From positions 32,001-96,000 of IMG/VR virus record IMGVR_UViG_3300032246_001180: a stretch of DNA of 64,000 nucleotides, one strand, 5' to 3'. Position numbers and translations under genes: made by a program. Below are positions 9,516 to 32,634 of the stretch, piece by piece (position 1 is the stretch's first letter; each line of letters starts with the position of its first letter). The DNA comes from a virus. The notes beneath the pieces are model-generated. The model was not told the origin of the DNA, searched no databases, and saw only the letters and a list, made by a program, of their open reading frames with translations.

Positions 9516-10085
9516 ATGAAACTGAGCATAATTGGTTGTCCTGATAAAAAAAGATTTCGTCCGTATATCAAAAGAGCAGCATTGTTTTATGCTGGAGAAT
9601 TGCTTACGCCGAAAATGAGAGAAAACGTTTATATAAAAATTAAGTTTAATAGTAAGATTGATGCTTTTGGTTATGCCTCTGTAGAAGATTATAATGATAG
9701 CGGTAAACCTAGAGATTTTTTAATTGAGTTGTATCCGCATCTAGCTGCATATGATATATTGAAAACTCTAGCACATGAAATGGTTCATGTAAAGCAATAT
9801 GCATATTCAGAAATGAATGAAGAAGGAAATAGATGGAAAGGCAATCGTGTGGATTTATCAACGATTGATTACTGGACTGAACCGTGGGAAATAGAAGCAC
9901 ACGGAATGGAACCAGGATTATTTACAAAGTTTGCAATCAAGGAAAAGTTGTGGGAAGTTTTTGACTATGTGCAGAATCCAGATAGTCCAATAGTACCTGA
10001 AATGTTAGGATTTAAAGAAGATAAGTCGGAAAATATTGTAATCACAACATTAGAAACAGAAGATAACACCTATATACAATTATGA
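9516..10085 (+). CDS. putative HEXXH metallopeptidase
   Basis: LAHEMVHVKQ, YW.EPWEIEA. Confidence 0.7.
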   Translation: MKLSIIGCPDKKRFRPYIKRAALFYAGELLTPKMRENVYIKIKFNSKIDAFGYASVEDYNDSGKPRDFLIELYPHLAAYDILKTLAHEMVHVKQYAYSEMNEEGNRWKGNRVDLSTIDYWTEPWEIEAHGMEPGLFTKFAIKEKLWEVFDYVQNPDSPIVPEMLGFKEDKSENIVITTLETEDNTYIQL

Positions 10086-10156
10086 AAAATACAAATTACA
10101 CATCACTACCAACAAATTTATGGCTCTTGAGTTTAGCCAGAATGGGGTTCGTGTAA
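10082..10156 (+). CDS. putative Leu-rich attenuator leader peptide MKNTNYTSLPTNLWLLSLARMGFV
   Basis: ATGA coupling to upstream stop; 5 Leu codons; 3' end complementary to terminator arm. Confidence 0.7.
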   Translation: MKNTNYTSLPTNLWLLSLARMGFV

Positions 10157-10181
10157 ACAATTCGTTGAGAATTACATACAG

Positions 10182-10212
10182 AACCCTAGACTAAACATCT
10201 AGGGTTTTTTTT
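10182..10212 (+). terminator. attenuator terminator 1
   Basis: aaccctaga-ctaaaca-tctagggtt plus T-run. Confidence 0.9.
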
Positions 10213-10226
10213 CGTTTATGTTTTTT

Positions 10227-10303
10227 GCCCCGATGACGGAATTGGTATACGTGCTGGTCTTAGAAACCAGATTTTGCGAGTTCGACTCTCGCTTGGGGCA
10301 CCA
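10227..10303 (+). tRNA. tRNA-Leu(TAG), short variable arm
   Basis: cloverleaf; ctggt-ctTAGaa-accag; CCA. Confidence 0.9.
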
Positions 10304-10371
10304 ATAAAAAAGTCTTGGACACGCAGACTTTAAAGAGAAGTGGGAGTAGGTGGAAACCCTACACCGAATTT

Positions 10372-10454
10372 GCGGGTATGGTGAAATAGGTAAACACAGC
10401 AGACTTAAAATCTGCCGCTTCGGCTTGCCGGTTCGATTCTGGCTACCCGCACCA
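10372..10454 (+). tRNA. tRNA-Leu(TAA)
   Basis: gcaga-ctTAAaa-tctgc; long variable arm; CCA. Confidence 0.93.
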
Positions 10455-10458
10455 AGTT

Positions 10459-10541
10459 TGTTGTTTTTTTGCAACAGTTGTTGTTTTTTTATTAAATTTT
10501 TATGAAAAGTGCTTGACATTTAAGAAAATATCCTATATACT
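10459..10541 (+). promoter_or_regulatory. TGTTGT-N6-GCAACA palindrome plus sigma70-type promoter of tRNA array
   Basis: palindrome 10459-10476; TTGACA 10513-18, 17 nt, TATACT 10536-41. Confidence 0.8.
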
Positions 10542-10547
10542 ATCACT

Positions 10548-10691
10548 ATGTTAAATTTTAAATCACACTCCTTTTTTAGAACGCCTGATGCCATGTCAAC
10601 AACATGGCAGGCTAACTATCGCTCACCGAAATGTGAGAATCCAGGTAGTATTGTCGGCAAGGGGTTTTGTGATGGAGATGGATGCTGTTAA
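10548..10691 (+). CDS. putative leaderless attenuator leader peptide (47 aa, contains all 20 amino acids)
   Basis: ATG 7 nt after -10 box, no SD; ggggttttgtg pairs with terminator 5' arm. Confidence 0.75.
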   Translation: MLNFKSHSFFRTPDAMSTTWQANYRSPKCENPGSIVGKGFCDGDGCC

Positions 10692-10718
10692 GTAACTAAT
10701 CTCAAAGAATACAAACAC

Positions 10719-10751
10719 AAAACCCTAGACCTAAAAAATCTAGGGTTTTTT
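10719..10751 (+). terminator. attenuator terminator 2
   Basis: aaaaccctaga-cctaaaaaa-tctagggtttttt. Confidence 0.9.
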
Positions 10752-10752
10752 G

Positions 10753-10784
10753 TTTTCGTTCTTACGAAAATTGCTCTTTAAAAA
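10753..10784 (+). promoter_or_regulatory. boxB-like hairpin plus boxA (TGCTCTTTAAAAA) antitermination site
   Basis: ttttcgt-tctt-acgaaaa, then close match to rrn boxA TGCTCTTTAACA. Confidence 0.65.
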
Positions 10785-10799
10785 CTTATATTGCTTTGT

Positions 10800-10873
10800 T
10801 GGGACATTGTGTAGTGGTAGCACAGCAGACTTTGACTCTGTTAGTCTAGGTTCGATTCCTAGTGTCCCTGCCA
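10800..10873 (+). tRNA. tRNA-Gln(TTG)
   Basis: gcaga-ctTTGac-tctgt; CCA. Confidence 0.92.
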
Positions 10874-10878
10874 AAAAT

Positions 10879-10970
10879 GGAAGGTAATGCAGCGGGGTTG
10901 GTCCTGCGACTGGCCTTGAAAACCAGGTTCTGAGAAATCGGATGGGGTTCGACTCCTCTGCCTTCCACCA
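10879..10970 (+). tRNA. tRNA-Ser(TGA), apparent 8/4 fold
   Basis: GGAAGGTA/TGCCTTCC acceptor, 4-bp T stem, ctTGAaa loop. Confidence 0.85.
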
Positions 10971-11095
10971 TATAAAAGCTCTTTGTGTAACTACAATGGA
11001 ACACCGAAATACTTGTCAATGTCGACCACGAACAAGGACCGGCCATGAAGAAGGGGTTATGTTCGGTTCAATTCCGTCAGAGAGCTTCTATATGG
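10968..11095 (+). ncRNA. helix-enclosed non-tRNA RNA 1 (with T-loop-like hairpin)
   Basis: ccatataaaagctctttg/cagagagcttctatatgg; cgg-ttcaatt-ccg. Confidence 0.6.
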
Positions 11096-11182
11096 GAGGG
11101 TTGGGTGAGTGGTTAAACCAGCGGTTTGCTAAACCGTCATCCAGAAATGGGTGCATCAGTTCGAATCTGATACCCTCCGCCA
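11095..11182 (+). tRNA. tRNA-Ser(GCT)
   Basis: gcggt-ttGCTaa-accgt; long variable arm. Confidence 0.92.
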
Positions 11183-11187
11183 ATTTT

Positions 11188-11262
11188 CTCGCCATCGTTC
11201 AACGGATAGGACAGCATTCTTCTAAAGTGCGAATGGGGGTTCGATTCCCTCTGGCGAGGCCA
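11188..11262 (+). tRNA. tRNA-Arg(TCT)
   Basis: gcatt-ctTCTaa-agtgc. Confidence 0.92.
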
Positions 11263-11268
11263 ATTTGT

Positions 11269-11345
11269 GTGGGCGTGCAGCTGAATGGTTAGGCACCGGA
11301 TTGCAAATCCGTATTATGCAGGTTCGAATCCTGTCGCCCACTCCA
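11269..11345 (+). tRNA. tRNA-Cys(GCA)
   Basis: cgga-ttGCAaa-tccg; U73 CCA. Confidence 0.9.
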
Positions 11346-11349
11346 AGAC

Positions 11350-11450
11350 TGTTGTATTTTTACAACACATCGAAAATAGTGCTTGACTATTTCTGTGGTT
11401 CGTGTAGAATACGTTCTATCGATTGAGAAATTAATCGATTCTTTAAAAAT
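11350..11450 (+). promoter_or_regulatory. palindrome plus internal sigma70-type promoter, hairpin and boxA-like site
   Basis: TGTTGT-ATTTTT-ACAACA; TTGACT-16-TAGAAT; atcgatt/aatcgat; TTCTTTAAAAAT. Confidence 0.65.
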
Positions 11451-11467
11451 TTGATGTAGTTTTTGAT

Positions 11468-11543
11468 GCACCTATCGTCTAACGGTTAGGACGCTGCCCT
11501 TTCAAGGCGGAAACGTAGGGTTCGATTCCCTCTAGGTGTACCA
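11468..11543 (+). tRNA. tRNA-Glu(TTC)
   Basis: ctgcc-ctTTCaa-ggcgg. Confidence 0.9.
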
Positions 11544-11757
11544 TACTAAAACATATTGGGTTACCAACTCCAGTAGGTACCTAGGAGAGATAATATCTGT
11601 GGCCGCACAGACTCTCGCTAGTAGTACATGAAGCAATCCGACTGTGCTGGAATCAGTTGAACCGTAATGTGGAAGTTGTCTTATCGGTAGACGAAACCGT
11701 GAGAAGCCAGATGAAGTTCTGGAACGACAACGACACCCCAATGTGTTTTAGTATGGT
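11540..11757 (+). ncRNA. helix-enclosed non-tRNA RNA 2 (~220 nt, multi-stem, possible pseudoknot)
   Basis: 21-bp terminal helix and several internal stems. Confidence 0.7.
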
Positions 11758-11780
11758 ATTTTTTAAACAAGGAGAAAGTA

Positions 11781-11822
11781 ATGAAACGAAAATTAAAACC
11801 TCGAAAGATTATGGGGGTATAA
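11781..11822 (+). CDS. Lys/Arg-rich mini-ORF MKRKLKPRKIMGV overlapping tRNA-Lys 5' end
   Basis: AAGGAG RBS 6 nt before ATG. Confidence 0.4.
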   Translation: MKRKLKPRKIMGV

Positions 11823-11887
11823 CTTAACGGCTAAAGTAGTAGGCTTTTAACCTATTAATCAGAGTTCGATTCTCTGTACCCCTACCA
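11813..11887 (+). tRNA. tRNA-Lys(TTT)
   Basis: gtagg-ctTTTaa-cctat. Confidence 0.92.
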
Positions 11888-11982
11888 TATAAAAACACTC
11901 TAAACTGGACGCAGGTTCTATGAAGCAAGACCTCGGGGTCATGTCCGAGAAGGTGTGGAGAATGAGAGTGTTTCTATATGGT
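11884..11982 (+). ncRNA. helix-enclosed non-tRNA RNA 3
   Basis: accatataaaaacactct/agagtgtttctatatggt. Confidence 0.6.
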
Positions 11983-12054
11983 GATGTAGCACAACGGTAG
12001 TGCATCTGCTTCATACGCAGGAGGTTAGTGGCTCGATTCCACTCATCACCACCA
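11980..12054 (+). tRNA. tRNA with CAT anticodon (elongator Met, or Ile2)
   Basis: ctgc-ttCATac-gcag. Confidence 0.85.
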
Positions 12055-12060
12055 GATTTT

Positions 12061-12135
12061 GCCCCGTTAATATAACGGCTATTATGCCCGCCTGTCCAGC
12101 GGAGAACAGGAGTTCGACTCTCCTACGGGGCGCCA
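12061..12135 (+). tRNA. tRNA-Asp(GTC)
   Basis: ccgc-ctGTCca-gcgg; G73. Confidence 0.9.
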
Positions 12136-12142
12136 AGTTTAT

Positions 12143-12217
12143 TCCAGAGTAGCACAGCGGTAGTGCAGTTGACTGTTAATCAATTGGTCGTAGGTTCGAT
12201 CCCTGCCTCTGGAGCCA
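12143..12217 (+). tRNA. tRNA-Asn(GTT)
   Basis: gttga-ctGTTaa-tcaat. Confidence 0.93.
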
Positions 12218-12230
12218 GTTAGTAAGTTTA

Positions 12231-12319
12231 GGAAGTGTGCGCTGAATTGGTTGAAGGCAACGGACTGTAAATCCGCCACATAAGAAACATTGTAGGTTCG
12301 AATCCTACCACTTCCACCA
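12231..12319 (+). tRNA. tRNA-Tyr(GTA)
   Basis: cgga-ctGTAaa-tccg; long variable arm. Confidence 0.9.
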
Positions 12320-12323
12320 AATA

Positions 12324-12397
12324 GCCTCTTTAGTTTAATGGTAGAACTCCGCTTTTACACAGCGGGTACGGCAGTTCGATTCTGTCAAGAGGCACCA
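12324..12397 (+). tRNA. tRNA-Val(TAC)
   Basis: ccgct-ttTACac-agcgg. Confidence 0.92.
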
Positions 12398-12399
12398 AT

Positions 12400-12475
12400 G
12401 CCAAGATAGCTCAGTTGGTAGAGCACCTGTCTGAAGAACAGGGTGTGGTTGGTTCGATCCCAACTCTTGGTGCCA
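12400..12475 (+). tRNA. tRNA-Phe(GAA)
   Basis: cctgt-ctGAAga-acagg. Confidence 0.92.
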
Positions 12476-12483
12476 AATTTTTT

Positions 12484-12557
12484 GCCCTATTAGTTAAATG
12501 GTAGAACATCGGTTTTGTAATCCGAGGACGGGAGTTCGATTCTCTCATGGGGCACCA
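12484..12557 (+). tRNA. tRNA-Thr(TGT)
   Basis: tcgg-tttTGTaat-ccga. Confidence 0.9.
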
Positions 12558-12571
12558 TTTAAAGGAATACG

Positions 12572-12817
12572 ATGTTAGATTATATCGTAACATTTTTAGC
12601 AATATTTTTACTTGATGTAGTGTACACTTATTATTTACGTTGTGTACAAAATAACAATGTCTTAGGTGCCAGTATATGGTCTATCGCTTGTTATTTGTTA
12701 GGCAGTTTAGCAGTAATTAATTATACAACAAATCATTGGTTGTTATTGCCAGCAATAGCAGGTGCTTTTTGTGGCACTTATGTGGGTATGACAATTAAAA
12801 AGAATAACGGAGTATAG
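12572..12817 (+). CDS. small 3-TM membrane protein
   Basis: hydrophobic ORF with AAGGA RBS. Confidence 0.7.
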   Translation: MLDYIVTFLAIFLLDVVYTYYLRCVQNNNVLGASIWSIACYLLGSLAVINYTTNHWLLLPAIAGAFCGTYVGMTIKKNNGV

Positions 12818-12884
12818 CACAGCCAGATAGTGCGCTCGGTTTGGGACCGAGAGGTCGCAGGTTTGATTCCTGCTACTCCGACCA
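12808..12884 (+). tRNA. tRNA-Pro(TGG)
   Basis: ctcgg(t)-ttTGGga-ccgag; C1-G72. Confidence 0.9.
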
Positions 12885-12889
12885 TTTAA

Positions 12890-12964
12890 GGGGGATTGGC
12901 GTAATTGGGAACGCAGTAGCTTTGCAAGCTTCAGTCGGGAGTTCGAATCTCCCATTCTCCACCA
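12890..12964 (+). tRNA. tRNA-Ala(TGC)
   Basis: agc-ttTGCaa-gct; G3-U70. Confidence 0.9.
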
Positions 12965-13021
12965 TTTTAAGTTTACAATAAAGTTTTTTAAGTTTACAAT
13001 AAAGTTTTTTAAGTTTACAAT
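12965..13021. repeat. 21-bp tandem repeat (aagtttacaataaagtttttt) x ~2.7
   Basis: direct inspection. Confidence 0.9.
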
Positions 13022-13096
13022 CGGTCCTTAGTAAAATGAATATTACACAGCGCTACGAACGCTGAAGTGGGAGTTTGATTCTCTCAGGACCGGCCA
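13022..13096 (+). tRNA. tRNA-Arg(ACG)
   Basis: cagcg-ctACGaa-cgctg. Confidence 0.9.
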
Positions 13097-13098
13097 TC

Positions 13099-13172
13099 AC
13101 TCGCATAGCTCAAAGGTAGAGCACTCGCTTGATAAGCGATAGACGAAGGATCGTTACCTTCTGTGAGTACCA
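13099..13172 (+). tRNA. tRNA-Ile(GAT)
   Basis: tcgc-ttGATaa-gcga. Confidence 0.88.
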
Positions 13173-13175
13173 TGT

Positions 13176-13250
13176 ATCTCGCTGGTGTTAACGGCAGCAT
13201 AGCGGTCTCCAAAACCGAAGGACGGGGTTCGAATCCCTGGCGGGGTGCCA
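13176..13250 (+). tRNA. tRNA-Trp(CCA)
   Basis: cggt-ctCCAaa-accg. Confidence 0.92.
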
Positions 13251-13272
13251 ATTATAATAAAAAGGTGTAATC

Positions 13273-13746
13273 ATGCGTAAATTAAATTTAGATGAAGTCA
13301 TTTCGTTTATCGAACAACAATCTCCAGAAAGTAAAGTTTATATTGGTTGTGATTCAGAGCGAGTTATTGTTGACGGCGTACCTTATGCTGATTATGTTCT
13401 TGCAATTGTAGTACACATCAATGGCAACAATGGTTGCAAATTATTTGGTGAAGTTAGTAGAGAAAGAGATTACGACCAGAAAAGAAACAAGCCTAGATAT
13501 AGGTTGATGAATGAAGTTTACAAGGTTTCAGAATTATATTTAAACCTTGTTAAAGTTTTAGTTGACCGTGATATTCAAGTTCACCTAGATATTAATCCAG
13601 ATGAAATGCACGGTTCATCTTGTGTTATCAATGAAGCGATTGGCTATATTAAAGGAACTTGCAATGTAATACCTCTGGTTAAACCAGAAGCGTTTGCGGC
13701 CTCTTATGCAGCTGACCGTTTTAAAGGACTAAAAAAGGCAGCTTGA
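13273..13746 (+). CDS. RNase H-like YkuK (DUF458) family protein
   Basis: YIGCDS, RLMNEV, VHLDIN, VKPEAFAASYAAD. Confidence 0.8.
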   Translation: MRKLNLDEVISFIEQQSPESKVYIGCDSERVIVDGVPYADYVLAIVVHINGNNGCKLFGEVSRERDYDQKRNKPRYRLMNEVYKVSELYLNLVKVLVDRDIQVHLDINPDEMHGSSCVINEAIGYIKGTCNVIPLVKPEAFAASYAADRFKGLKKAA

Positions 13747-13763
13747 ACATATGAGAGATTACA

Positions 13764-14210
13764 ATGATATCAACAATAAAAACAATAACAGAACAATTTC
13801 TTTCTCTTTTACTTGATGATCCAGTAAGACCATCAATACCACATCTCGACCGTGTAGGTGAGAACAAGGATATTTTTGTTTTTCGGGGAGAAGATGATTC
13901 TATAAAAGCAATTACTTGCGTTAGTTACCAAGTAACTGTACCAACATCAGAGGCGGAATTATTTGAAAGATGTTCCACTCCGACTGTGGCAGTATTCTAT
14001 ACAATTTGGAGTTATGCGCCAGGTGCTGGTCGCCAATTGATATTCGATGCTGTACAATACATAAAAGAAAATAGAAAAGATATTAACAGATTTGTAACAC
14101 TTTCACCTAAAACTCATATGGCACGAAAGTTCCATACAAGAAACGGTGCAATGGTGTTTCGTGATAATCCTGAAACGGTGAATTACGAATACAAGAATGT
14201 AGTTCTTTAA
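13764..14210 (+). CDS. hypothetical GNAT-like protein
   Basis: FYTIWSY..GAGRQL, LSP, ARKFH.RNGA resemble acetyltransferase motifs. Confidence 0.55.
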   Translation: MISTIKTITEQFLSLLLDDPVRPSIPHLDRVGENKDIFVFRGEDDSIKAITCVSYQVTVPTSEAELFERCSTPTVAVFYTIWSYAPGAGRQLIFDAVQYIKENRKDINRFVTLSPKTHMARKFHTRNGAMVFRDNPETVNYEYKNVVL

Positions 14211-14284
14211 GCGGGATTAGTTTAATGGTCAAACGAAACCTTGCCAAGGTTTAGTCAGGAGTTCGATTCTCCTATCCCGCTCCA
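14211..14284 (+). tRNA. tRNA-Gly(GCC)
   Basis: aaacc-ttGCCaa-ggttt; U73. Confidence 0.93.
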
Positions 14285-14366
14285 TTTAAGAGTGCAGGCT
14301 CTTTTTAAATCCTGCCTTTGTGTGGTACCGAACATCGCTACTGCTTGGATAAGCATCGGTACATTT

Positions 14367-14440
14367 GCAGGGTTAGTTTAATGGTAAAACTCCATCCTTC
14401 CAAGTTGGTGTCGTGAGTTCGATTCTCACACTCTGCTCCA
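14367..14440 (+). tRNA. tRNA-Gly(TCC)
   Basis: ctTCCaa loop; U73 CCA. Confidence 0.9.
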
Positions 14441-14446
14441 GTTTAT

Positions 14447-14521
14447 GGAGAAATTAGTTTAGTGGTAAAACCACGGGTTGTGATTCCGTTATCACGGGTT
14501 CGATTCCCGTATTTCTCCCCA
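14447..14521 (+). tRNA. tRNA-His(GTG)
   Basis: G-1:C73; acggg-ttGTGat-tccgt. Confidence 0.9.
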
Positions 14522-14525
14522 ATTT

Positions 14526-14600
14526 GGGCCAATAGCTTAATGGTAAAGCAATCGACTCATAATCGATTGAGTCTTGGTTCAATTCCAAGTTGGCCCACCA
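14526..14600 (+). tRNA. tRNA with CAT anticodon (probably Ile2, lysidine type)
   Basis: atcga-ctCATaa-tcgat; GGGCC acceptor. Confidence 0.85.
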
Positions 14601-14618
14601 AGTTTGCCATAGATAGTG

Positions 14619-14647
14619 TTGACAAAGCAATATAAGTATAGTAGAAT
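14619..14647 (+). promoter_or_regulatory. sigma70-type promoter
   Basis: TTGACA-17-TAGAAT. Confidence 0.7.
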
Positions 14648-14655
14648 GATTAAAT

Positions 14656-14722
14656 GCGGTGTGTGATAGCACGACATTCGGTTCCCCCGATTGTTATCTG
14701 AGCAAAGCAGACCACCGCTCCA
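14656..14722 (+). ncRNA. degenerate tRNA-Gly(TCC)-like RNA (67 nt)
   Basis: GCGGTG/CACCGC-T-CCA, TCC-centred loop, non-canonical T-loop. Confidence 0.6.
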
Positions 14723-14746
14723 TTTTATATATTAAAGGCATCTGTA

Positions 14747-14992
14747 ATGATTTTAAAACCAACTGCATCAAATGTTCATATCACCAGAGTTGCCGCAGAG
14801 AAGCAAACTAAATCTGGTATTATTTTAAAAAACACGGAAGAACCTGACAAAGCAAAAGTTGAATCAATAGGTAAAGACGTAACCGACCTTGAAGTTGGTG
14901 ATGTTGTTTTGGTTAACTGGAATAAAGCAATCAAAGTTGATGTTGATTCATACATCATTCCGGAATCAGACATTATTATGGTATTCGAATAA
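14747..14992 (+). CDS. groES: co-chaperonin GroES (Cpn10)
   Basis: LKP...V.I.....EKQTKSGIIL, VGDVVL, ESDI. Confidence 0.85.
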   Translation: MILKPTASNVHITRVAAEKQTKSGIILKNTEEPDKAKVESIGKDVTDLEVGDVVLVNWNKAIKVDVDSYIIPESDIIMVFE

Positions 14993-14997
14993 TTTAT

Positions 14998-15071
14998 AGC
15001 GGATTAGTGAAACGGTATCACAGAGGACTCATAATCCTCAGTTCCTAGTTCGAATCTAGGGTCCGCAACCA
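14998..15071 (+). tRNA. tRNA-Met(CAT), probable initiator
   Basis: 1:72 mismatch; gagga-ctCATaa-tcctc. Confidence 0.85.
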
Positions 15072-31630: not shown

Positions 31631-32634
31631 AAAAAGTATTCATAACAGGTGTTGCAGGATTTTTAGGTAGTCATTTGGCTGACGCATTTTTGGCCAAAGG
31701 TTATCAAGTCGCAGGCATTGATAATTTATTAGGAGGTTATCGTGATAATGTGCCTGATAATGTTGAATTTTATGATTGCGATTTATTGCATCTCAACCGA
31801 CTAAAAGATATGATGGCAGATTGTGATGTTGTATATCATACAGCCTGTACTGCATATGAAGGTCTATCAGTATTTTCTCCATCTCTTATTGTACAGAACA
31901 CAACACAAATTGCTGTCAATGCAATGACTGCCGCTATTCAAGCGGGTGTTCCCAAGTTTGTACATTGTTCTTCTATGGCAAGATATGGTACACAAGAAAT
32001 TGTTCCGTTTACAGAAGACTTGACACCGAAACCACAAGACCCTTATGGTATTGCTAAATGGGGTACAGAACTTTTGCTTAAGAATTTGGCAGATGTTCAC
32101 GGTATTGAATTGGTGATTGCCGTACCACATAATATTATTGGACCTCGTCAAAAGTATGATGACCCATTCCGAAATGTGGCTAGTATTATGATTAATTTGA
32201 TGTTGCAAAATAGGCAACCAATCATCTATGCTGACGGTTCACAGACTAGGTGCTTCTCCGACATATCAGATGACGTAGATTGTCTAGTAGAGTTTGCAGA
32301 GAATCCTAAGGCGGTTGGAGAGATTTTTAACATAGGTCCTGATGAGAATCCAGTAACAATTATTGAACTTGCACAGACAGTTGCCAAATTACTTAATTTT
32401 AATTTAGATCCGGTATTCATGCCAGGTCGTCCACAGGAAGTTAAACACGCCAACTGTTCTGCTGATAAAATTAGAGAATATTTTGGATATGAAACGAAAA
32501 CCACGTTGGAACAGTCTTTACAAAAACAAATCGACTATATCCAAAGGCGTGGAACTAAGCCATTTCTGTATCATTTAGACTTAGAAATTGTTTCAGATAA
32601 AACACCAAAAACTTGGACCCAAAAAATGTTTTAA
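31621..32634 (+). CDS. NAD-dependent nucleotide-sugar epimerase/dehydratase
   Basis: TGVAGFLGSH, YGIAK, NIIGPRQ. Confidence 0.9.
   Translation: MAMKKVFITGVAGFLGSHLADAFLAKGYQVAGIDNLLGGYRDNVPDNVEFYDCDLLHLNRLKDMMADCDVVYHTACTAYEGLSVFSPSLIVQNTTQIAVNAMTAAIQAGVPKFVHCSSMARYGTQEIVPFTEDLTPKPQDPYGIAKWGTELLLKNLADVHGIELVIAVPHNIIGPRQKYDDPFRNVASIMINLMLQNRQPIIYADGSQTRCFSDISDDVDCLVEFAENPKAVGEIFNIGPDENPVTIIELAQTVAKLLNFNLDPVFMPGRPQEVKHANCSADKIREYFGYETKTTLEQSLQKQIDYIQRRGTKPFLYHLDLEIVSDKTPKTWTQKMF

Follow-up and report, generated by a model that had tools for sequence, protein, structure and literature searches.

Phage transfer RNA (tRNA) genes are mostly considered with regard to codon usage or to escape from tRNA-targeting defences and, to our knowledge, how their expression is controlled is largely unknown. 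The question of what such control might look like is raised by a tRNA array in a stretch of viral DNA of 64,000 nucleotides (nt), hereafter the window, which covers positions 32,001 to 96,000 of IMG/VR record IMGVR_UViG_3300032246_001180, a 168-kb virus record. At the head of this array, at window positions 10513-10784, lies an element composed of a promoter, a short open reading frame (ORF), a strand complementary to an intrinsic terminator, the terminator itself and a boxA-like motif, and dozens of uncultured relatives present this arrangement in front of their tRNA arrays. As judged from the comparison of these sequences, the element is real, conserved and under selection, and we consider it likely to be a ribosome-mediated (leader-peptide, trp/ilv-type) attenuator that couples transcription of the phage tRNAs to the speed at which a test peptide is decoded. 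The layout of the element and its conservation were established computationally, as were its reading frame, the covariation of the antiterminator and of the terminator, and the match of leaders with arrays. An earlier note, written from the letters of the window alone, had interpreted the locus as an attenuator induced by the depletion or cleavage of tRNAs; the conservation, the covariation and the leader-array match support most of this interpretation, whereas the direction of the switch and any link to tRNA-cleaving defences are inferred.

The element and the array behind it comprise the following features.

10513-10541, + strand: promoter P1, with TTGACA (10513-10518), a 17-nt spacer and TATACT (10536-10541), 11/12 matches to the consensus
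10548-10691, + strand: leader ORF of 47 codons and a stop codon, probably leaderless, with its ATG at the predicted +1
10562-10573, + strand: candidate region 1 (protector strand), weakly supported, pairing with region 2 in the minimum-energy fold
10617-10638, + strand: TATCGC (always Tyr-Arg) and then an internal hairpin, possibly a pause hairpin, delineated by family comparison
10661-10671, + strand: region 2, the 5' strand of the antiterminator, GGGGTTTTGTG, within the last codons of the ORF (Gly-Phe-Cys)
10675-10703, + strand: small hairpin of the linker that joins region 2 to region 3, including the stop codon, seen in the minimum-energy fold
10709-10729, + strand: region 3, an A-rich flank and the terminator 5' arm, common to both alternative helices, defined by pairing and covariation
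10719-10751, with the T-run to 10757, + strand: intrinsic terminator hairpin, from terminator prediction and folding
10739-10757, + strand: region 4, the terminator 3' arm and T-run, from prediction, folding and the family alignment
10772-10784, + strand: boxA-like TGCTCTTTAAAAA, a motif of the same form standing behind the terminator in 32/39 homologues
10800-10873, + strand: tRNA-Gln, the first tRNA behind P1, leader and terminator
10800-13250, + strand: first run of the tRNA array, from Gln to Trp, with 19 tRNAs (ARAGORN and Rfam), within reach of read-through from P1

The ATG at 10548 lies 6 nt 3' of the -10 hexamer and is not preceded by a Shine-Dalgarno (SD) sequence. Region 2 is complementary to CACAAAACCCT (10716-10726), which overlaps the terminator 5' arm, and the best duplex reaches -17.5 kcal/mol. 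The first 36 codons of the leader encode all 20 amino acids, and its first 39 codons are of 31 different types. The near-consensus promoter with its expected +1 on the ATG, the ORF and its peptide, the complementary strands, the terminator and the boxA followed by tRNAs had been described in the earlier note and were recovered here at the same positions, its amino-acid and codon counts being reproduced on recounting. The fold of the 213-nt leader has a z-score of -4.3 relative to shuffled sequences, and the terminator scores on the minus strand as well. Rfam returned no family at threshold for the leader of the window, with Thr_leader (RF00506) reaching 29.7 bits against a cut-off of 55 (E = 0.014) over 10685-10754 only, and the leader peptide matched no family in Pfam. 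Among the 15 terminator-like hairpins detected across the 168-kb genome, only the two at the head of the tRNA array have a strong upstream partner, with energies of -17.5 and -15.9 kcal/mol, the others averaging -8.4 with a next best value of -10.3 kcal/mol.

Homologues of the element were collected with an upstream gene (9516-10085), encoding a 189-residue protein, as bait. This yielded 80 related loci on uncultured viral contigs, the leader having played no part in their selection. Examination of the 345 nt upstream revealed that about 28 tRNA-Gln-first arrays among the 80 loci are preceded by a promoter, a short ORF, a complementary strand and a terminator; behind the terminator, a second promoter is common and a boxA-like motif is missing only rarely. 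The set was widened with two DNA-pattern scans and one terminator-only scan, the terminator-only pattern adding 72 more stretches, and the elements added by scanning include some that head arrays whose first tRNA is not Gln. Most counts reported here rest on 39 curated elements and on 64 distinct leader DNAs, which encode 59 distinct peptides of 25-47 residues; the median peptide identity of the long leaders is 31%. The earlier note had made its interpretation depend on conservation of the ORF and of the complementarity in homologues. The ORF is open over 25-47 codons and has proper start signals in 39/39 elements and in the 64 leader DNAs, and the complementarity is likewise present in 39/39 elements, with covariation. 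A promoter comparable to P1 occupies the same position in nearly all homologues. At two loci (L090:3890-3905 and L091, minus strand, 930-947), the leader ATG stands behind TATAAATA, which resembles a T4 late promoter, in place of a sigma-70 -10 box.

The alternative helices of the element are preserved as pairings in spite of sequence divergence. In each of the 39 elements, the terminator 5' arm finds its best upstream partner at the 3' end of the ORF, with energies of -13 to -23 kcal/mol. In a swap test on the 24 elements that had been found without the use of any motif, own pairs averaged -18.1 kcal/mol and foreign pairs -14.8 kcal/mol (P<5e-5). The antiterminator alignment presents 86% of its cells paired, compared to at most 61% in slid controls, with one pair being U-A in 17 sequences and G-C in 14, and the terminator alignment presents 92% of its cells paired, with both sides changed in six of nine pairs. 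Covariation, which the earlier note had proposed as a check on the antiterminator and the terminator, was hence found for both helices, for the antiterminator by means of the swap test and the slid-control alignment and for the terminator in its own alignment. Where the terminator stem is divergent (L083, L072, L078 and L053), the upstream strand is altered to match it, even where the Gly-Phe-Cys codons have been lost, and when region 4 is left out of the fold, region 3 pairs upstream with region 2 in 37 of the 39 elements. The distance between the stop codon and the terminator stem is held at 24-35 nt, and the end of region 2 varies across the family, from 18 nt ahead of the stop codon to 3 nt beyond its first base. 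An internal hairpin follows TATCGC in most elements (mean z-score of -1.85 relative to shuffles); RNAalifold returned no consensus structure for this hairpin, because its loop lengths vary.

These features suggest a mechanism in which P1 would start a leaderless messenger RNA (mRNA) at the ATG of the 47-codon ORF, the last codons of which contain region 2, complementary to the 5' arm and flank (region 3) of a terminator located 24-35 nt past the stop codon. A first ribosome that keeps up with RNA polymerase would cover region 2 while regions 3 and 4 emerge; with region 2 covered, the terminator would form and transcription would stop ahead of boxA and tRNA-Gln. If the ribosome were delayed earlier in the ORF, region 2 would be free and would pair first with region 3, blocking the base of the terminator and allowing the polymerase to pass boxA into the tRNA genes. 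We infer this direction of the switch, from stalling to read-through, and with it the physiological signal. The leader has a codon for each amino acid or, in relatives with smaller arrays, mainly for the amino acids that those arrays serve; its transit time would therefore report on the sufficiency of the aminoacyl-tRNAs that the array can supply, resulting in negative feedback on phage tRNA synthesis. The earlier note had supposed that tight control may extend only to the Gln/Ser/Ser/Arg/Cys genes at the start of the array. On the + strand, however, terminator prediction gave no site from 10751 to ~13374, and read-through from P1 could consequently span 19 tRNAs and not only these five.

The leaders are rich in amino-acid kinds. 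Of the 59 distinct peptides, 34 contain 20 kinds of amino acid, 11 contain 19, four contain 18 and ten contain 17, about 16 being expected. Under the composition of the phage proteome, the probability of finding all 20 amino acids is ~0.002 for 36 residues and 0.023 for 47, and complete coverage is observed even in leaders of 31 and 32 codons (L097:5052-5144 and L085:4203-4298). Among 13 representatives with less than 40% identity, eight contain 20 kinds, four contain 19 and one contains 18; in a drift simulation replacing 60% of an all-20 leader, all 20 amino acids were left in 1.3% of the trials. The data point to selection that retains each of the 20 amino acids, even the rare Trp, Cys, His and Met, at 31% identity.

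The coverage is specific to the reading frame of the leader. Across the 64 leaders, frame 0 averages 19.1 kinds of amino acid and contains no stops, whereas the other five frames average 15.5-16.6 kinds and 0.8-3.5 stops, and the number of kinds in frame 0 is strictly the highest in 55 leaders, tied in nine and never lower. TATCGC lies in frame 0 in every element, and it lies 36 to 75 nt from the start codon, at ten different distances that are all multiples of three. In addition, the start codon follows the type of start signal. All 13 leaderless forms begin with ATG, at a spacing of 6-9 nt from the -10 box, whereas 15 of the 23 SD-led forms begin with GTG or TTG (Fisher P=9e-5). Leaderless mRNAs need a 5' AUG, and the exclusive use of ATG in the leaderless forms fits this need and agrees with translation. 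The ORF is hence probably translated.

The leaders also match the arrays that they precede. This was analysed on 35 distinct leaders with arrays uncut by the locus end, in tests where shared ancestry is not controlled. Of the amino-acid kinds with a tRNA in the array, 95.9% are also found in its own leader, compared to 88.5% after permuting the arrays (P<5e-5). Presence and absence are concordant in 484 of 665 cells, against 418 +/- 11.5, and the 14 short and medium leaders alone are concordant in 153 of 266, against 124.6 +/- 6.5. Leader length rises with the count of amino-acid kinds that the array serves (Spearman correlation of 0.68), smaller arrays standing behind shorter leaders, and the codon boxes used for Leu, Ser and Arg agree with the isoacceptors present in 130 of 210 cases, against 102.5 +/- 5.9. 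The correspondence is easily appreciated in individual short leaders. The 22-codon leader of L018 contains six Leu, three Asn, two Thr, two Pro and one Trp, and heads an array with tRNAs for Leu, Trp, Pro, Thr, Asn and Met, while 14 of the 21 residues in the leader of L167 are cognate to its array (His, Trp, Glu, Tyr, Cys, Gly, Thr and Met). For the long leaders, the comparison of missing amino acids with missing tRNAs offers too few informative cases, and the arrays are cut by locus ends.

Several observations weigh against a leader-peptide attenuator as the explanation of these data. In 21 of the 39 elements a strong second promoter lies between the terminator and boxA, so that an attenuator there would only modulate part of the transcription, adding to a basal level; the window and 17 others (18/39) have no other promoter ahead of the first tRNA, and the array of the window presents extra promoter-like sites within it at 11383, 12972/12993 and 14619. 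In L076 (4117-4283) the leader ORF is deleted, with P1 followed directly by the terminator and with the second promoter and boxA intact. Conserved peptide motifs (Tyr-Arg, Ser-Trp and Gly-Phe-Cys) could denote a function of the peptide, yet their positions are also those of RNA helices. The leader uses each amino acid just once or twice and lacks tandem runs of the kind seen in hisL or leuL, and the sensitivity to any one tRNA may consequently be low. In equilibrium folds with a ribosome mask placed at each codon, the extended terminator wins in most elements regardless of the position of the mask, and with the mask on early codons the antiterminator prevailed in only around half of them, kinetics lying outside this calculation; the proposed mechanism hence depends on kinetics, as in classical attenuators. 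Region 2 of the window ends 18 nt before the stop codon, where a ribosome parked on the stop would barely cover it. Regarding the match with the array, the 26-codon leader of L130 heads 25 tRNAs and is devoid of Cys, Asp and Gln, four short leaders without Glu precede a tRNA-Glu, and three short leaders show no cognate enrichment. Given these exceptions and the confounding effect of shared ancestry, the match counts as support and not as proof. Lastly, public RNA runs (Logan contigs) covered the tRNAs and related terminators but not the leader ORF, and are uninformative on its expression.

The alternative that best withstands the evidence retains the attenuator but has it respond to transcription-translation coupling only, that is, to global capacity, ribosome availability or host shut-off, with broad coverage serving to avoid dependence on any single tRNA. 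Such a device would explain the use of each amino acid once or twice and the absence of tandem regulatory codons, and would be indifferent to the several short leaders without cognate enrichment. It would also accommodate the lack of a supported protector helix, which implies that a total lack of translation should yield read-through as well. The earlier note had seen no such 1:2 helix. A weak candidate strand does exist at codons 3-8, where the average pairing energy with region 2 dips across the family (mean of about -10 kcal/mol), but the swap test detected no covariation for it (P=0.4). A simple coupling timer, however, has no need for all 20 amino acids to be kept at 31% identity, nor for the content and length of the leader to track the tRNA content of the array, and we regard this explanation as unlikely.

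A second alternative would see in the locus a small gene that stands alone, with a promoter, a terminator and a functional peptide of its own, and that neighbours the tRNA array by position only; the complementary strand would then be a side effect of A-tract/U-tract symmetry in a terminator that works in both directions. In its favour, the terminator does score on both strands, a strong second promoter follows it in 21/39 relatives, and the peptide has conserved residues (Tyr-Arg, Cys, Asp, Ser-Trp and Gly-Phe-Cys). Those residues fall nonetheless on RNA helices, and L083 and L072 lose Gly-Phe-Cys but keep the complementarity to their changed terminators. A covarying helix that competes with the gene's own terminator has no role in this explanation, coverage of all 20 amino acids and a length and content scaled to the array are unexpected for a functional peptide, the peptide belongs to no Pfam family, and the 18 elements without another promoter before the first tRNA, that of the window among them, do not fit an independent unit. 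We therefore deem this explanation improbable. The notion that the ORF is coincidental, and the element an untranslated structured leader or small stable RNA (a riboswitch- or T-box-like sensor, or a processed RNA as in the T4 tRNA region), can draw on the stable fold, the conserved internal hairpin and the sub-threshold Thr_leader match over the terminator, but is very improbable in view of a frame that is open in 64/64 leaders where the other five accumulate stops, of spacing that shifts in steps of three, of start codons that follow the leaderless or SD-led state, of amino-acid coverage peculiar to frame 0 and of the absence of any Rfam family at threshold.

A broader version of the attenuator, which we advance tentatively and rate as somewhat short of probable, would have the leader audit the whole aminoacyl-tRNA pool. 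Any shortage would bring about read-through and provide the phage with its own complete tRNA set on demand, to be switched off once decoding is restored, and the shorter versions would audit their own smaller arrays. The shortages in question could stem from phage-induced host shut-off, from starvation or from tRNA cleavage by anticodon nucleases, which is where a link to tRNA-cleaving defences would come in.

The window contains a second, shorter version of the element, located upstream of the first.

10050-10215, + strand: paralogous short element, with an ORF, region 2 and a terminator, and then two tRNA-Leu genes

The ORF of this element (10082-10156) has 24 codons, five of them for Leu; its region 2 spans 10144-10156 and its terminator 10183-10208, and a C in its region 2 is matched by a G in the flank of its terminator. 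Homologous to it are the short leaders found in L018 and L020, which are Leu-rich too and lie ahead of tRNA-Leu-first arrays, and related short leaders without Leu enrichment head arrays without tRNA-Leu.

The phage from which the window derives is uncultured and T4-like. The record encodes a T4-type DNA polymerase, and its nearest deposited relatives are cyanomyophages with ~51% identity. Searches with the leader region against deposited phage genomes (megablast and blastn) returned no match other than terminator-like fragments, and no cultured relative. A scan of bacterial genomes identified a single copy (L165:627-746), composed of a leader with 19 kinds of amino acid, a terminator and tRNA-Gln. 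It lies on a contig of 17 kb that was binned with an uncultured Methylophilaceae genome, which may point weakly to the host or may reflect a phage contig placed in the wrong bin. At loci L011-L043 (for example, L029:6499-6807), which have few tRNAs, a different arrangement is found behind the gene for the 189-residue protein, consisting of a strong promoter, a tRNA-like RNA of ~75 nt ending in a CCA-like TCCA and the gene for a small basic protein of ~55 residues.

The tRNA region of the window (10227-15071) contains 24 tRNA genes according to ARAGORN, and Rfam adds two that ARAGORN missed (10879-10966 and 11271-11340), for a total of 26. The first of these has a long arm and scores highest on the tRNA-Sec model (36.8 bits, under the cut-off), but is probably a tRNA-Ser; the second, at 43 bits, was named Cys by the earlier note. 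Between tRNA-Glu and tRNA-Lys lies a structured segment of ~220 nt (11539-11758) with 22-nt inverted repeats at its ends (95% complementary). High-depth contigs from one lake metatranscriptome extend across 11568-11705, one of them identical over 86 nt, which suggests that the RNA of this segment may be abundant. Immediately 5' of tRNA-Arg(ACG), at 12965-13021, a 21-nt unit is present in three exact tandem copies, each with a promoter-like TTTACA ... TACAAT. The tRNA region also includes protein genes at 13273-13746, of an RNase H-like family (PF04308, E=2.5e-16), and at 14747-14992, for a Cpn10/GroES-like co-chaperonin (PF00166, E=1.6e-8).

Full-text literature searches returned no description of tRNA genes, whether of phages or of bacteria, that are controlled by leader-peptide attenuation. 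The nearest known systems are the multivalent leaders of the proteobacterial ilvGMEDA (Ile/Leu/Val) and thr (Thr/Ile) operons, together with the single-amino-acid leaders trpL, hisL, leuL and pheL. Like these, the phage element has a promoter-proximal short ORF with an intrinsic terminator behind it, leader codons that match what the controlled genes supply, and an alternative helix in which the terminator 5' arm pairs with a strand from the end of the ORF. It differs from them in controlling tRNAs instead of biosynthetic enzymes, in being phage-encoded and often leaderless, and in having boxA behind the terminator. Furthermore, its leader devotes about one codon to each amino acid, for up to 20 of them, where amino-acid operon leaders use runs of one to three amino acids; it has no supported 1:2 protector helix, and falls below the Rfam threshold for Thr_leader.

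Regulation of the decoding machinery according to the state of the tRNA pool is known from two other systems. The pheM leader of pheST operates by ribosome-mediated attenuation, senses one amino acid and controls a synthetase, and T-box riboswitches bind uncharged tRNA directly, with no ORF involved. The phage element resembles both in its regulated products and in its signal, but it relies on a translated ORF that samples many or all tRNAs, and it controls tRNA genes. With the ribosome-stalling leaders of ermC, cat and vmlR, and with PA5471.1 of Pseudomonas (upstream of armZ), all of them sensors of general translation stress, it shares a logic in which slowed translation of a short ORF remodels the RNA and activates downstream genes without being tied to one amino acid. 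Those leaders answer to drug-bound ribosomes at arrest motifs, whereas the phage leader has no evident arrest motif and a composition matched to a tRNA set. Finally, the placement of a boxA-like motif just 5' of untranslated structured RNA genes, in 32/39 elements, recalls rrn-type boxA antitermination; the putative boxA of the phage differs in being preceded by a conditional terminator, to which half of the relatives add a second promoter.

If the attenuator reading is correct, these phages would gauge the speed of decoding and adjust their tRNA supply by feedback, and leader-peptide attenuation would reach beyond amino-acid operons to tRNA genes. The element would embody a new sensing design, in which a codon for every amino acid takes the place of repeated codons for one, and would constitute a compact natural sensor of translation elongation in less than 250 nt.

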